Below, piece after piece: positions 2,287 through 52,185 of a stretch of DNA of 61,017 bases (position 1 is its first letter; every line of letters begins with the position of its first letter). The DNA is taken from IMG/VR virus record IMGVR_UViG_3300047586_000114, positions 1 to 61,017 of that record; one strand, written 5' to 3'. Source of the DNA: a virus. Taxonomy: Duplodnaviria; Caudoviricetes. The translations under genes and the position numbers were made by a program. The notes under the pieces are model-generated. The model was not told the origin of the DNA. It saw only the letters and a list, made by a program, of their open reading frames with translations, and did no database searches.

Positions 2287-3307
2287 TGTAGTAAGCCTTT
2301 TTAATTTTATGATCGTATAATATCGGACAAATAGGAAATGTACCAAAATCTTTCTTGTTTTTGTTATAATACAATTTTAAATTTTCAACTATATGTTGAG
2401 TATTATTGATGAACTTATTATAACAATAAAACTCTTTATCTAAATCACTTAAAATTACAACATTTACTTTATATAAAGATTCATCAAAACAAATGGATTT
2501 TAATGCTGATTCATAAGAGAATGATTGACAAGATGCAAATAAATATGATTCATTATTTAAGTTTAATATATTATGAGTTATACAAGCAAGAATATTAAAT
2601 ATACCTTCAGATAAAACAATTGTGTTACTTTTTGTATTATTAGTTTTAAATGAAACATAATCTAATAGATTATAGTTATTATTTTGTATCTCATATTTAA
2701 AGAATTTAAAGTTATCGTTACGGTTTATATTTCTAAAAAATATCTTTGATTTATTGTGGCTGATAAAACCCACAAATTGTTCTTGTAGTTTGTTGATTAA
2801 TGATGTTTTTTCATTAAATAGTATTCCGGGATTGAGATTAATTAGTTCTCTAATATTGAAAATTAAATTATTTTTAAGTAGATTGAAAGTATAGTTATCT
2901 ATATTTTCTGTACATAACCTATTTTTAATATATTCTAGTTTTGAAGGAAACGAATCTAAATCTGGTTCTAATTCCGGAATTTTAATATCTTTAAATTTTA
3001 ATTGTTTTGATTTGATTATTTTGAGATTATCTGATAGTTGTTTTAACTCAGATTTAGGAAGAACTTGTTCTGCAATTTCATCAGAATGAGTTAAATAATA
3101 AATAAGTTCTCTGATAGAATTACTTTTATTACACAGGAAACAATGGTATATGGGGAGTTCTGGATTTTTTGAAATCCTAAGATGATCTTGCTTAGAAATT
3201 GTTTTGTGTTCCTGGCAAAAAACACATTTGCAAAATATATTCTTATCATTTTCCTTTACATAAATATCTTTTTCTTTAACTATTTCTCTGATAAGATCTA
3301 CATTCAT
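2246..3307 (-). CDS. DNA primase (Zn-binding + TOPRIM; T4 gp61-like)
   Basis: N-terminal CVFC...HCFLC zinc motif; TOPRIM motifs IVLSEGIFN and ILSDLD. Confidence 0.75.
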   Translation of the reverse strand: MNVDLIREIVKEKDIYVKENDKNIFCKCVFCQEHKTISKQDHLRISKNPELPIYHCFLCNKSNSIRELIYYLTHSDEIAEQVLPKSELKQLSDNLKIIKSKQLKFKDIKIPELEPDLDSFPSKLEYIKNRLCTENIDNYTFNLLKNNLIFNIRELINLNPGILFNEKTSLINKLQEQFVGFISHNKSKIFFRNINRNDNFKFFKYEIQNNNYNLLDYVSFKTNNTKSNTIVLSEGIFNILACITHNILNLNNESYLFASCQSFSYESALKSICFDESLYKVNVVILSDLDKEFYCYNKFINNTQHIVENLKLYYNKNKKDFGTFPICPILYDHKIKKAYYNENNRMRQGVKKG

Positions 3308-46942: not shown

Positions 46943-47650
46943 ATGGTTAAGAAAAAGTTAGTTATTATTTTGGTTGCCGCTATTATTTGTGTTTCTCCTT
47001 CTTATGCTGGTGGTGGGGGAGGTAATCGTGGAGGAGGTGGAGGTGGTTATGGATGTCACGGTGGAGGAGGTGGATATCGAGGAGGCGGGTGGGGTGGGCA
47101 TGGATGGTATGGATCGAGTGCTTGGGGCTGGACCAACTTTGGTCTGGCTTGCGGAGCATTGGCTCTTGGATCATATGCAGCAGCATTACCATATCCAGTA
47201 GCACCCATCTATTATGGTGGGATTCCCTACTATGGTTATGGTGGTTCTTATTACACTCCTTATGGCAACGGTTATGTTGTTGCTCAGCCACCAGTTGTAT
47301 ATCAACAGCCAGCTCCTGTTATGTATCAAGCACCAGTTGGAGGAATAGTTGGAGCTGTAACTAATACAGTAACTGGAGTATCCTCTAATGCGTTGGGTAC
47401 AGCAAATAACATTCTGACCGGTTATTCGCCTCAACCCCAGTCCATACAGCAACAATCTCAATCACAATCTCAACCAGTTTCAGATCAACAATCACAACCA
47501 TCAAATAATTTTAATGTTCATCTTCCAAATGACAACGGTACTTATACAGTTGTCCCACTCATTAAAACTAACAATGGTTTTATGGGTCCTCAAGGTGAAT
47601 TCTATCAAGATTATCCGACAGCTACTCAGTTGAGGAATCGTTACAAGTAA
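46943..47650 (+). CDS. exported Gly/Tyr/Pro/Gln-rich protein
   Basis: Signal peptide (..SPSYA), Gly-rich tract, YxxP repeats, C-terminal VHLPNDNGTYT...GPQGEFY domain; GC higher than flanks. Confidence 0.7.
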   Translation: MVKKKLVIILVAAIICVSPSYAGGGGGNRGGGGGGYGCHGGGGGYRGGGWGGHGWYGSSAWGWTNFGLACGALALGSYAAALPYPVAPIYYGGIPYYGYGGSYYTPYGNGYVVAQPPVVYQQPAPVMYQAPVGGIVGAVTNTVTGVSSNALGTANNILTGYSPQPQSIQQQSQSQSQPVSDQQSQPSNNFNVHLPNDNGTYTVVPLIKTNNGFMGPQGEFYQDYPTATQLRNRYK

Positions 47651-47874: not shown

Positions 47875-49254
47875 ATGGAGGTTAGTGTGGATCCAAAAAC
47901 AAAATATAAAGATTGGTATGATAAATATGATAAGATAGAAGCGCATCTATTTCGAGATCCCATATTCAAACCTTTTGGTATTGCCTTAATGGGTTTTGAA
48001 GTTGAATTTGATAATTTTAGTGGGGTTCCAGATGCAGTTAATTTATTGAAAGAAAATAGGATATTAATCAATGTTAATTCTATTTTATTAAAAGAAAGAA
48101 CTGGATTAAATTTTATTGTTCTTCATGAAATTTGGCATCATATCAATATGTATATGGAAAGAGCTAATCATCGAGATCCAGAACTCTGGAATATATCTGA
48201 TGATTATTGTGGTAATCTTTTTATTCATGAATTAGAAAAATTATCTAAAGTAAAAAGTAATGGTCAAAAATTTGATCTTGATGTTATGGAAATAAAACAT
48301 AAATGCGGAGCACTTCTCCGTGATGAATTTCAAAATATGATTACTGAAGAAATATATGATAAACTGAAAAGTAAAGGACAATACTCTAAAAAAGAGTATA
48401 CAAAAAAATTAAAGGAAATTATTCCTTCTACAAACGGAACTCCTGATGGGGAAATTGATGCATTAATTAAAGAAATTCATTTTAAATATAAAGAGGATAG
48501 AATAGACAAAAAAGAAATTATTTTACCACAACCCACAAATGGTAAAGATGGTGAAAAAACTCCAGCTCAAAAATTAATTGAAAAAGCAATTAAAACATTC
48601 AGACATATGATGCTAGATATTGGAAAGCAATTATCTGATATCAATCATTTAATTGAAAGATTATTTGCAACTCAAATTCCTTGGAATGAAATTCTTAGAG
48701 ATTTAACTACATTATATATAAAGATAGAAAATGAAACTACTTGGTCAAGAGAACGTTTAAGTAGTTTTATAAATCCAGAACTTCCTATTTTACCAGGTTA
48801 TGATGATGAAGAAATCAGAAGTATTGTTTTCTTTGTTATAGACCAATCCGGATCGGTTAGTGATGAAGATATGGGTAAAGTTCTTAATATTATTTTACAA
48901 TCTAGAGAATTCTTTGAATTCATTTGGGTTATAAAACATGATATGACTTGTACTAATTTAGAAATTTATGAAGCAAAAAATATTGGTGAAAATGAGAAAA
49001 AAGAAATTTGTACAAGAAAAAAATGTGGAGGAACTTCTCATAAAGATGCATTTAAAATAATAAAAGAAAAATATGAAAAACAAGATATAAATCAACCCAT
49101 AAGTTGTGTAATATTTTGTACTGATCTTTGTTCTGATATTAATGAACATATTGATATTCTTCCAAAAGAACTTCCCTATATTTGGATAGTTCCGAAACAA
49201 CATCAACCGAATGTTAAATTAAAAGGAAAGAAAATTATTATCAACGATAATTAA
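47875..49254 (+). CDS. metallopeptidase-like + vWA domain protein (DUF2201-type)
   Basis: VLHEIWH (HExxH), WNIS.D, IDQSGS MIDAS, GGT, FCTD. Confidence 0.85.
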   Translation: MEVSVDPKTKYKDWYDKYDKIEAHLFRDPIFKPFGIALMGFEVEFDNFSGVPDAVNLLKENRILINVNSILLKERTGLNFIVLHEIWHHINMYMERANHRDPELWNISDDYCGNLFIHELEKLSKVKSNGQKFDLDVMEIKHKCGALLRDEFQNMITEEIYDKLKSKGQYSKKEYTKKLKEIIPSTNGTPDGEIDALIKEIHFKYKEDRIDKKEIILPQPTNGKDGEKTPAQKLIEKAIKTFRHMMLDIGKQLSDINHLIERLFATQIPWNEILRDLTTLYIKIENETTWSRERLSSFINPELPILPGYDDEEIRSIVFFVIDQSGSVSDEDMGKVLNIILQSREFFEFIWVIKHDMTCTNLEIYEAKNIGENEKKEICTRKKCGGTSHKDAFKIIKEKYEKQDINQPISCVIFCTDLCSDINEHIDILPKELPYIWIVPKQHQPNVKLKGKKIIINDN

Positions 49255-49269
49255 GAAAGGAAAACGCAA

Positions 49270-50502
49270 ATGGGGAAAAAACAATTTGAGGTAACATTTA
49301 AGGAGTTAGATAAACTTCTATTTACCTCTTTAACTTTACAATATAACAGTATCAAAAATAAACAATTCACTGCTATTCCATATATACAAGGCAGTCCCGG
49401 TATTGGTAAATCTGAATATATGAAAGAAGCCATTAAAACAATATTTCCTTCTTTTAAAATTCAAGGTAAAGAACTTAAATTTCTTTCTCTTGAAAATGTT
49501 ACTAAAATGGGAGCTAGTGAATGGGGTTCTGTTATTCAATATTTAGCTACATTTCCATTAGAGAAAATGACAGGACTTCCGTGTAAAACAAATGATGATA
49601 CAATATTTGCTAAATGGACTTGTCCCGATTTGTTTGATTTTACTTCTGCACAAATTAAACCAATAAATCTAGATAATTCAATTATTGTTCTTTTTCTTGA
49701 TGATTGTCATCTTGTGAAAAGCAATATGTCTCCTTATCTCTTTCAATTATTTTCTTATCGTTCTATTCATGGATATACTTTACCGGATAATGTTTTAATT
49801 ATTTGTGCCGGTAATGGTCCAGATGATAATGCTGGATATAATAAAATACCAACACCAATAATTAATCGTCATCTGTTTTTCTATGTCTATCCAGAAATAG
49901 ATGTCTGGATTGAGAGATATGCAATTAAGAAAAATATTCGTCCTGAAATTATTTCTTTCTTAAAACATGATGAAAGTTTCTTTTTTACAAAACCAATTAA
50001 TGAAGAACCATTTTGCACCCCTCGTTCTTGGGTTTCATTATCCAATCACATGTCATCATATTATGATCTTTTCCCCCAGGAAAAGGATACAGATTTTATT
50101 TATCAATTCGCAACCGGACTTCTTTCAACAGAAGCGGTTGGAAGATTTTCTGAATACATAGAACTTATTTATAAATGGGATGCAAAATCTTTATTAGATG
50201 GAAGTAAAAAATTAGATTCATCTCAACTAGATAAAATCAATGCTTATGCTTTATTATCTGGATGTTCTGGGGTTATGATTGATATAATCAAGAATATGAA
50301 AAATATGAAAAAAAATGATATTGAATTTTATGTAAGAAATTTCAAATCAATATTGGGAGTTATTACAAAATCATATAGAACTGTAGTGCCGATAGCTATT
50401 GCTTTGGTTGTTAGATATGAATTTAAAGAGACAGGTAAAATGGATTTTACTAAATCTTTAATATCTGATGAAGTATCTAACTTTGTTTATGAGTTAACAT
50501 AA
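49270..50502 (+). CDS. MoxR-like AAA+ ATPase
   Basis: GSPGIGKS, VLFLDD, ICAGN, INR, TPRSW. Confidence 0.85.
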   Translation: MGKKQFEVTFKELDKLLFTSLTLQYNSIKNKQFTAIPYIQGSPGIGKSEYMKEAIKTIFPSFKIQGKELKFLSLENVTKMGASEWGSVIQYLATFPLEKMTGLPCKTNDDTIFAKWTCPDLFDFTSAQIKPINLDNSIIVLFLDDCHLVKSNMSPYLFQLFSYRSIHGYTLPDNVLIICAGNGPDDNAGYNKIPTPIINRHLFFYVYPEIDVWIERYAIKKNIRPEIISFLKHDESFFFTKPINEEPFCTPRSWVSLSNHMSSYYDLFPQEKDTDFIYQFATGLLSTEAVGRFSEYIELIYKWDAKSLLDGSKKLDSSQLDKINAYALLSGCSGVMIDIIKNMKNMKKNDIEFYVRNFKSILGVITKSYRTVVPIAIALVVRYEFKETGKMDFTKSLISDEVSNFVYELT

Positions 50503-50503
50503 T

Positions 50504-51544
50504 ATGAATACTAATATATTATATGGAATTGCAACAGTAAGAGATAAACAAGTTAAATTACAATGCGGTACTAAATTTATAAGATTTGCAAAAAATGCTC
50601 CATATTTATGGACTGATAATAAAATTATTAAATATAAAGAGAAAACATTTTATCCTCTCTTTGATTCTGATTTAAGAAAAACTCAAATATTTATTTCATT
50701 TACTGAAAAAGATATAGTATTTGAAACAATGAAAATTATTGAAATAAAAAATTGTAAGATATTGAATAAGAAGCATATAAATAATATTAATGATCAAAAG
50801 TTTTATTTTGATAAATATATGAATCCTTTTCCTTATCTAAAACAAACAGATGAAGGTTCTGAAATAATTGGTGAAGATGAATATATATGTTTCAATAGAA
50901 TAAATGAAAGATCATCAGGATTTCCATTTAAAGAAGATTTTAATGTAGAAATAAAATGTGAATCAAATTTAAGTAAAGATGAAATCTGGTCAAAATTTTT
51001 AGATTATAGTAACATCAATTATAAAAATTCCATATTACAAATTTCTGAATTTTTTCCAGTATTTAGAAATTTTTATCTGAATAGAATCTTGTATAGTAGA
51101 TTTGCAGATAAGTATAAATTAGAAAAACCAAAACCTACTCCATCTGCATTTAATAATTTTGTTATGAATGAAGTAAATACAGAATTAGAAGTTATTGATT
51201 TAAATGAATTGGTTGATATTCAAATTATAGATAAAAATGGAGAAATAAATATCTTTAATAATTGTAAATTGTGGGATATTAAAAGAAATAATATCCTTAC
51301 ATATGAAATTGATGATATAAGAAATTTTAATTTCGTTACATATGATAAAATTTATTATTTGGTTCTTCCATTAACTGTATCTTATGAATGGAAACAAAAG
51401 AGATTAAAAGGTCATTATTACAGTTGTGAGGAGTATTATAAATATTTAATTTTAATTCAAGTAAATAAGCAGTCATTGGAAACGTTTAAAAGAAATAATA
51501 TAGTGGAGAAACTATCTGGGAGGGAGAGAATAAATAATATTTAA
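50504..51544 (+). CDS. hypothetical protein
   Basis: 346-aa ORF, 1 nt after the ATPase stop. Confidence 0.65.
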   Translation: MNTNILYGIATVRDKQVKLQCGTKFIRFAKNAPYLWTDNKIIKYKEKTFYPLFDSDLRKTQIFISFTEKDIVFETMKIIEIKNCKILNKKHINNINDQKFYFDKYMNPFPYLKQTDEGSEIIGEDEYICFNRINERSSGFPFKEDFNVEIKCESNLSKDEIWSKFLDYSNINYKNSILQISEFFPVFRNFYLNRILYSRFADKYKLEKPKPTPSAFNNFVMNEVNTELEVIDLNELVDIQIIDKNGEINIFNNCKLWDIKRNNILTYEIDDIRNFNFVTYDKIYYLVLPLTVSYEWKQKRLKGHYYSCEEYYKYLILIQVNKQSLETFKRNNIVEKLSGRERINNI

Positions 51545-51587
51545 AGGAAATAATTTTCATGCCCGGATGGCGTAATGGCAGCCGCAT

Positions 51588-51800
51588 CAAATTTTTTCTG
51601 GTGCGAGTATATGGTAACATATACAAAGATCGAGGCTAAATCGGTGAATCTCCTAACAGGTAAAGCTGAGGACAACGCCGTGCTAAGTGGGAAAATAAAT
51701 ATTCCCTAAATGTGTAGAGAAGCATATACCTCGCTCCTAACAGGTAAAGCTGAGGATGAAGACGTGCTCCATGCCATATAGTAATATATGGAAATAAGTG
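51588..51800 (+). ncRNA. group I intron 1 (213 nt, IC3-like) at tRNA position 27/28
   Basis: U before 5' splice site, terminal G; P1 CGCAU|CA with UGGUGCG (U-G at splice site); P10 UCUG/CAGA; AAAUCGGUGAA and AACGCCGUGCUAAG core; P3 CGAGG/CCUCG; P7 with UGCUCC. Confidence 0.88.
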
Positions 51801-51807
51801 CAGACTT

Positions 51808-52024
51808 AATTAATTTGAGTGCTCTAAGGGAAACCTTAGAAGTAGAAGTTCCCAAACTCGGTGAACGGTTTTAAATCCCAACGCCGAGCCAACCTCAATT
51901 AAAATTGAGAAGTGTGTAGAGAGCAGACGGGAACTACCTAAGTATCAAGAAATGATATATGGTAATGGCGTGCTCCAGACCACGAACATCTTTCTTAGAT
52001 GGCGTTGAAAAACGAAGTGGTAAG
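51808..52024 (+). ncRNA. group I intron 2 (217 nt, IC3-like) at tRNA position 34/35
   Basis: P1 ACUU/GAGU; P2 with GAAA loop and CCUAAG...UAUGG 11-nt receptor in P8; P3 AGUUCCC/GGGAACU; P7 GAGAGCA/UGCUCC; terminal G. Confidence 0.92.
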
Positions 52025-52110
52025 AAAATCTGATATCCGCAAGGGTGTGGGGGTTCAAGTCCCCCTCCGGGCATATCCTTTTTATCTAACAGGAAATTTT
52101 TTATTTTAAT

Positions 52111-52185
52111 GGGACAGTAATTCAACGGTCAGAATAGGTGACTCATAATCACTCAACGATGTTTCGACTACATCCTGTCCCACCA
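52111..52185 (+). tRNA. tRNA with CAU anticodon, probably Ile2 (lysidine) rather than Met
   Basis: GGGACAG/CTGTCCC acceptor + ACCA; anticodon arm GGTGA CTCATAA TCACT resembles the Ile2 type; no fMet hallmarks. Confidence 0.85.

Follow-up and report, generated by a model that had tools for sequence, protein, structure and literature searches.

Group I introns in tRNAs have so far been treated as an anticodon-loop phenomenon, and the main catalogue tested only loop positions by design. With a loop intron, the exons are held together by the anticodon stem, which stays intact. Breaking the stem itself poses another structural problem: the ribozyme must unfold the D arm to form its P1 helix and mimic one strand of the stem to align the exons. 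The locus described here raises the question of whether such an intron occurs in nature, and of how a tRNA could be rebuilt around it. The window, by which we mean the whole stretch of DNA analyzed, is an entire IMG/VR virus record of 61 kb, with an estimated completeness of ~20%.

The catalogue, Williams 2020 (bioRxiv 10.1101/2020.01.27.920355), lists 5292 bacterial tRNA genes split by introns, which fall into 21 tRNA/site classes and were found by a pipeline that allowed only 8 candidate sites around the 7 anticodon-loop nucleotides; it also describes introns in the T loop of tmRNA. The accessible part of a 2014 review (PMC4033280) tabulates multiple-intron tRNAs for Archaea only, and has the bacterial introns adjoin the anticodon. 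A sequence-only reading of the window had stated that the described sites are loop positions, and this agrees with the Williams classes, for which only loop positions were tested, and with the accessible part of the review. As far as its accessible part goes, a second 2014 review (PMC3984707) placed every phage intron then known in protein genes, and the accessible part of a report on Jug huge phages gives ~18 small introns per genome (PMC12363816). The literature searched, which lay largely outside subscription journals, gave no description of a stem-site group I intron in a tRNA or of a pre-tRNA with two group I introns.

Exon structure of the tRNA-Leu(UAA) gene

The tRNA-Leu(UAA) gene occupies 51561-52073 on the plus strand; its three exons measure 27, 7 and 49 nt, and the two introns between them 213 and 217 nt. 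Exon 1 (51561-51587), delimited by in silico splicing with ARAGORN, provides tRNA nucleotides 1-27, namely the 5' strand of the acceptor stem, the D arm, A26 and U27. Exon 2 (51801-51807, CAGACUU) consists of the 7 nucleotides 28-34, according to the sequence and the in silico splice. Exon 3 (52025-52073), as called by ARAGORN, extends from A35 to A73 and includes a long variable arm and the T arm; CCA is not encoded. The acceptor stem corresponds to a 12-nt inverted repeat (51559-51570 and 52063-52074). When 51588-51800 and 51808-52024 are both deleted in silico, ARAGORN returns an 83-nt tRNA-Leu(taa) with a five-base-pair Watson-Crick anticodon stem (UCAGA/UCUGA), a 7-nt loop (CUUAAAA) and a UAA anticodon; the long variable arm, A73 and the type II features of a tRNA-Leu are present. 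Deletion of 51588-51800 alone yields a tRNA-Leu with a 217-nt intron at position 35.

The gene escapes routine annotation. It is missed by ARAGORN without the intron option and by the Rfam tRNA model, and the default settings call only a tRNA-Met at 52111-52185. With introns allowed, ARAGORN misparses it, either as a 'tRNA-Stop(tta)' with a 428-nt intron or as a tRNA-Leu whose only intron is one of 430 nt in the loop. Failures of this kind may lead to an undercount of phage tRNAs.

The assertion that the 5' strand of the anticodon stem is broken after U27 is borne out by exon boundaries taken from uninterrupted tRNA-Leu genes, which the flanking exons match exactly as far as U27. BLAST against the window found five uninterrupted tRNA genes whose matches end at 51588-51594, just beyond U27. 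A 20-mer of exon 1 was found at 13 metagenome loci, nine of them tRNA genes; none of the nine is broken at 27/28, and one (L068) has a 34/35 intron. In genome contigs, the same 20-mer gave five loci, including two tRNA-Leu genes (in a Candidatus Taylorbacteria MAG and a Clostridia MAG), both uninterrupted. One of the metagenome tRNA genes, L073, agrees with the predicted ligated exons in all 39 of 39 nt, with both junctions continuous: it reads TGGCG...GCCGCAT-CAGACTT-AAAATCTGATAT unbroken, and its contig ends after these 39 nt. L073 has no flank homology to the window and is not kin of this phage; we take it as an uninterrupted homologous tRNA gene, not as an empty-site allele. Its junction 26-mer had no match in genome contigs. 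Among the few tRNA-Leu genes retrieved, the one closest to the window gene comes from a Candidatus Taylorbacteria MAG (L189, noted together with L062); its D arm is identical and its acceptor and T arms are nearly so. This likeness to the candidate phyla radiation is a very weak hint at the host lineage.

Of the eight neighboring ORFs compared with Pfam, a single one had matches, all to DUF2201 domains. This ORF (47875-50502) carries DUF2201 metallopeptidase-like and VWA-like domains and is followed by a 410-aa ORF lacking a Pfam match, the pair lying just upstream of the tRNA genes. A further ORF (46943-47650) encodes a 235-aa low-complexity protein rich in Gly, Tyr and Gln, with an N-terminal hydrophobic segment. 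A search for relatives of an upstream 346-aa protein found none, so no syntenic phage was available for comparison, and a scan for promoters and terminators gave nothing exceeding shuffles.

Guide sequence and group I core of the first intron

Intron 1 (51588-51800, plus strand), as delimited by a family covariance model (R1), a manual model and folding, is a 213-nt group I intron between tRNA nucleotides 27 and 28, with G 51800 as its terminal nucleotide. Its internal guide sequence, UCUGGUGCG (51597-51605), was identified from the sequence and a shuffle test. As the sequence-only reading had claimed, the UGGUGCG part (51599-51605) pairs with 51583-51589, which comprises the exon nucleotides CGCAU (51583-51587) and the intron nucleotides CA (51588-51589), to give P1. 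Within P1, the last exon nucleotide, U 51587, stands opposite guide G 51601 as the U·G wobble that is expected at the 5' splice site of group I introns. The proposed P10 was likewise found: the guide UCUG (51597-51600) pairs with the 3'-exon CAGA (51801-51804), and the terminal G 51800 lies directly before this exon strand. The postulated mimicry is close, as the guide UCUGG and the 3' anticodon-stem strand of the tRNA, UCUGA (52029-52033), differ in the last base alone.

The idea that the guide is fitted to this very site gained support from a test in which a 9-mer fitting both flanks was required in the first 40 nt of shuffled introns: just 3 of 20000 shuffles succeeded. The intron contains a single 9-mer that pairs fully with CGCAU and CAGA and puts G opposite U; the plus strand of the 61-kb window contains two. 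Since the intron and the 3' exon share the initial CA, the insertion point is ambiguous at the DNA level, from 27/28 to 29/30, and is set at 27/28 only because of the rule of U(-1) and a terminal G. The predicted absence of a homing endonuclease was confirmed, in that the ORFs wholly within intron 1 have at most 29 aa, and the longest one overlapping it, of 49 aa, extends beyond the intron 3' end. The group I core takes up all 213 nt.

The core can be followed helix by helix. P2 (51607-51624) is a hairpin of 7 bp with a GUAA loop, seen in the manual model and the fold, and R1 aligns it with the P2 of the family. The 5' strand of P3, CGAGG (51631-51635), pairs with CCUCG (51729-51733) in R1 and the manual model and covaries across the family. 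P4 and P5 (51642-51680), found by R1, the manual model and the fold, consist of CGGUG (51642-51646) paired with CGCCG (51676-51680) around the P5 hairpin (51650-51672), and the P6a hairpin (51689-51706, GGGAA/UUCCC) follows in the manual model and the fold. In the manual model, the 5' strand of P7, GAGAAGCA (51717-51724), pairs with UGCUCC (51765-51770) to form the pseudoknotted guanosine-binding helix. The P8 hairpin (51734-51756), identified through a direct repeat (D1) and the fold, is a copy of the P5 hairpin at 23 of 23 nt, and P9 (51774-51791; manual model and fold) is again a 7-bp hairpin with GUAA as its loop; the tail AAAUAAGUG comes after it.

Every pair of the manual P1-P9 model is standard: P3, P4, P6, P7 in a pseudoknot with P3, P8 and P9 can all be drawn with standard pairs, and the joining segments align to those of the family. 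An unconstrained minimum-free-energy fold of 51583-51804 recovers P1, P2, P3, P4, P5, P6a, P8 and P9 (z = -3.13), and none of 200 shuffles was equally stable. In the columns of the model, intron 1 has standard pairs at 7/7 positions in P2, 5/5 in P3, 5/5 in P4 and 4/4 in P9. Its P8 adopts a different register, leaving 2/4 of the model P8 columns unpaired. Direct repeat D1, which contains the P5 and P8 hairpins, spans 35 nt at 89% identity. The identical GUAA loops L2 and L9 and the single 23-nt hairpin used as both P5 and P8 may represent two matched loop-receptor pairs.

R1 was built from nine aligned 34/35 tRNA introns, with intron 1 excluded; the material came from huge-phage records with a tRNA-Leu 34/35 intron and from IMG/VR loci obtained by core-motif searches. 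In these nine introns, P2, P3, P4, P7, P8 and P9 pair and covary. Over the 61 kb it gave exactly two matches, namely intron 2 with 200.7 bits, a score that is not independent because intron 2 is a training row, and intron 1 with 79.4 bits (E 1.5e-20, a rough value from a shortened calibration). The group I identity that had been proposed for intron 1 is supported by this score against a model trained without it and by the presence of all core helices. The general Rfam model RF00028 (Intron_gpI) scored lower: in an 801-nt search it gave intron 1 20.1 bits (E 0.012) and intron 2 29.1 bits, under the gathering score of 50, and at E <= 0.1 across the whole window it reported neither intron. In a family alignment of 23 rows, 94.2% of the cells pair and both-side changes occur in 26 of 30 pairs, against 0 of 500 shuffles, with pair counts that lean towards the model to which the alignment was fitted. 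On this sequence evidence, intron 1 is a genuine group I intron, and its site in the tRNA is new to the literature searched. It is homologous to tRNA group I introns yet lies after U27, which supports the earlier proposal of an additional insertion site. By position, intron 2 belongs to the tRNA-Leu(UAA) 34/35 intron class, and intron 1, between nucleotides 27 and 28, does not.

Descent from group I introns could nevertheless be compatible with a loss of splicing, in which case the gene would be a dead tRNA-Leu copy on the phage. P7 of intron 1 has one extra A, bulged, beside the catalytic site and the guanosine-binding pair. Of the 21 family rows that show the motif, it is the only one with this A, the other 20 reading GAGA plus 3 nt; P6 proper has 2 bp and P9.0 is weak. 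The scans gave no second instance of the arrangement from which purifying selection could be read. On the other hand, single-nucleotide bulges do occur in P7 of active group I introns. We consider a dead copy unlikely, because decay would not be expected to spare all the other helices and joining segments, a guide that fits both flanks perfectly, exons that are undamaged and match L073 over both junctions, and an intact intron 2.

The 3' end of intron 1 suggests another possibility. Family introns end in ...UAAG directly before the 3' exon; the tail AAAUAAGUG departs from this ending and contains AAAUAAG, up to G 51798, and then UG. As this family-like UAAG ends 2 nt early, the tRNA would gain two nucleotides if G 51798 were used, or the element might merely block tRNA maturation. 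This seems very improbable, given that P10 (UCUG/CAGA) aligns the exon start at 51801, not 51799, and that only G 51800 restores a tRNA and the uninterrupted sequence of L073. The notion that the three-exon gene arose when the assembly fused two intron-bearing tRNA-Leu alleles is hardly credible, despite a depth of only ~6 and the short identical stretches shared by the introns (CGTGCTCCA, GTGTAGAGA and the P4 strands), since these stretches of 9-14 nt are below the assembly word size, a Logan contig of run X1 spans 51300-52066 with 0 differences and no joints, and a guide matched to the break after U27 would not be expected from a chimera. This contig counts as a second assembler, not a second sample, as run X1 is possibly the source sample; one sequencing run, of DNA, is listed for the locus. 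We favor, as the probable reading for this fragment of a large phage, a tRNA-Leu(UAA) in three exons with two independent small group I ribozyme introns, the first of which lies after U27.

Relatives of the introns and the search for further cases

Intron 2 (51808-52024, plus strand) is a group I intron of 217 nt that lies between U34 and A35, the classic site in tRNA-Leu(UAA). It is matched by R1 and, below the gathering score, by RF00028, and homologues of it were found in huge-phage records. The two introns have identical P4 strands and share CGUGCUCCA and the P7 3' strands. Their core identity is 55% over 169 well-occupied columns, so intron 1 is not a recent copy of intron 2, and an origin by duplication of intron 2 was rejected. 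Core identity of intron 1 reaches 64-67% with L009, L012 and L038, which are tRNA-Leu 34/35 introns, and with L026 and L037; L026 is an intron in a phage protein-like gene. These identities mark intron 1 as a change of site within a mobile family residing in tRNA loops and protein genes, not as a separate lineage, and we infer that it reached 27/28 by transposition of a family member, not by duplication of intron 2. The exact 23-nt P5/P8 hairpin had no match among viral contigs. A twintron was also ruled out, as the introns are adjacent, with the 7-nt exon 2 between them, and each has its own complete P1-P9.

Some related introns carry ORFs. HNH-type endonuclease ORFs are located in the P1-P2 region of L012 (2946-3738) and L038 (282-1145), the L004 intron has an endonuclease remnant in P6, and L002 is also among the ORF-carrying relatives; both window introns are ORF-less. 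In L026 (11670-12864), and also in L033, L035, L036 and L095, three family introns interrupt a single phage protein-like gene (its exons read ...NYGA...) within ~1.2 kb, in agreement with the accessible part of the Jug phage report (PMC12363816).

How does intron 1 compare with known systems? With the U34/A35 intron of tRNA-Leu(UAA), which is present in cyanobacteria, plastids and many bacteria ('Leu.3Ug' of Williams 2020) and of which intron 2 is a member, intron 1 shares the small-intron core. The likeness includes J3/4-P4, J6/7 (GUGUAGAGA), J8/7-P7, the P9 layout, the type of host gene, the U(-1)·G pair and the terminal G; an ORF is often absent in this class, and the nearest tRNA relatives of intron 1 (L009, L012 and L038) occupy that site. 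The differences are that intron 1 sits in the stem, 7 nt upstream of that site, that its P1 is built on the D-stem 3' strand with A26 and U27 where the class uses the anticodon stem and loop, that its guide is unrelated (UGGUGCG versus GAGU), and that its P5/P8 hairpins are duplicated and its loops are GUAA instead of GAAA. The introns of tRNA-Arg, tRNA-fMet, tRNA-Ile2 and 17 further classes of Williams 2020 are self-splicing introns in tRNAs; all 21 classes have anticodon-loop sites, the only ones tested, and none has two introns in one tRNA. The tmRNA T-loop intron, in a tRNA-like host, demonstrates that such introns can also sit elsewhere than in the anticodon loop.

Archaeal multi-intron tRNA genes, as described in the accessible parts of PMC4033280 and PMC4090602, have several introns per gene, some in stems, and very short internal exons, as here. 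However, the archaeal introns are short bulge-helix-bulge elements processed by a protein endonuclease and ligase, whereas here we predict two ribozymes of ~215 nt. The protein genes of Jug huge phages (PMC12363816, accessible part) and L026, L033, L035, L036 and L095 contain the same family of ~200-nt ORF-less introns, several per gene, but their long exons, unlike the tRNA of the window, offer no RNA structure for an intron to disrupt and restore.

The earlier reading had proposed that phage and metagenome contigs be searched for other tRNA genes broken after U27. When this was done, no second case appeared among the matches listed, which are a sample: of the ~130 other family introns or homologous tRNA genes among them, none has an intron at 27/28 and none has two introns. 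Phage-encoded tRNA group I introns as such are common, a single family pattern being found in at least 119 stretches (IMG/VR loci L075-L188). This family-wide scan gave at least 121 matches, in 121 loci besides the window. Among the matches listed, 89 of 121 fall within a tRNA that ARAGORN calls with an intron in the anticodon loop, and 32 do not. Four of the latter (L114, L145, L147 and L150) give a tRNA on brute-force joining, with the loop junction among the solutions. By eye, the other 28 are truncated or endonuclease-bearing tRNA-Leu genes, loop-intron tRNAs missed by ARAGORN, or protein-like or unclassified hosts. R1, applied to the 114 new loci, found no tRNA with two matches among the matches listed; in both L089 and L125, two matches belong to two distinct tRNA genes, each with its own intron. 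Joining the flanks by brute force with ARAGORN is very noisy, and the 'position 27' solutions in L097 were artefacts that arose from a 33/34 intron in a tRNA(CAU) gene.

Other patterns were scanned as well. The pattern GTGTAGAGA..CGTGCTCCA matched 22 loci, comprising nine tRNA genes with a 34/35 intron, three loci (L010, L018 and L019) with a different intron-like element and ten loci without an R1 match. The element of L010, L018 and L019 shares GTGTAGAGA...GCGTGCTCCA and has no R1 match. The pattern GAGGCTAAWTCGGYGAA matched 16 loci, none with a break at 27/28; the eight with R1 matches are two tRNA-Leu 34/35 introns, five protein-like genes and one unclassified host. A 'twin-intron' pattern matched 21 loci, all of which were by eye chance matches in coding-like sequence.

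Two unusual tRNA-like genes emerged from these searches. At L022 (769-1036, minus strand, with flanks), a 34/35 intron interrupts the loop CUU/AAAA, with a UAA anticodon, in a gene with a short variable region, and the tRNA looks like a class I tRNA, not a normal type II tRNA-Leu. At L111 (~2681-2887, minus strand, with flanks), an intron-bearing tRNA-like gene has a T loop that is by eye off consensus, and its intron appears to split a CUG anticodon at 35/36.

Proposed splicing of the two introns and its implications

The guide suggests how intron 1 might remove itself, with UCUGGUGCG standing in for the UCUGA strand of the tRNA. In the first step, the guide would pair with C23-U27 as P1, including the U27·G wobble, and an external guanosine would cleave after U27. 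As this P1 uses C23-U27, the D stem would have to be open during the first step. In the second step, the guide would pair with C28-A31 as P10, and the terminal G 51800 would be replaced so that exon 1 is joined to the 7-nt exon 2. Self-splicing of intron 1 is what the modelled core and guide lead us to infer.

Exon 2 would be used twice, with nucleotides 28-31 in P10 of intron 1 and nucleotides 31-34 in P1 of intron 2. It has three potential partners in all, these being P10 of intron 1 (C28-A31), P1 of intron 2 (A31-U34) and UCUG at 39-42 of the tRNA (C28-A31). Both introns would have to be removed before the anticodon arm could form, and either order of removal may be possible. If intron 1 left first, the product would be an ordinary 34/35 pre-tRNA-Leu with a full anticodon stem. 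If intron 2 left first, C28-A31 might become locked in the anticodon hairpin, and P10 of intron 1 would have to compete. We tentatively suggest that intron 1 leaves first, as this is the more natural order, given that its product is a standard 34/35 pre-tRNA-Leu with a complete anticodon stem. A minimum-free-energy fold of the full 513-nt precursor (z = -7.3) retains the P1 hairpin of each intron together with the acceptor stem and the T arm, but cross-pairs some core strands of introns 1 and 2; in this model, co-transcriptional folding probably matters for the two-intron precursor.

It is an evenly balanced question whether this gene represents the first natural tRNA precursor that needs two group I self-splicings around a 7-nt exon and, at the same time, the first case of a group I intron within the stem of a tRNA, its guide taking the place of the 3' strand of the anticodon stem. 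If it does, group I introns would be able to colonize paired regions of tRNAs, and surveys that allow one anticodon-loop intron would miss or misannotate such genes. The shared mini-exon would make the two ribozymes compete or cooperate, and the pair would offer a compact natural system for splicing order, cross-misfolding and exon definition. For the phage, the supply of tRNA-Leu(UAA) during infection could then hinge on an ordered pair of RNA-catalyzed steps.
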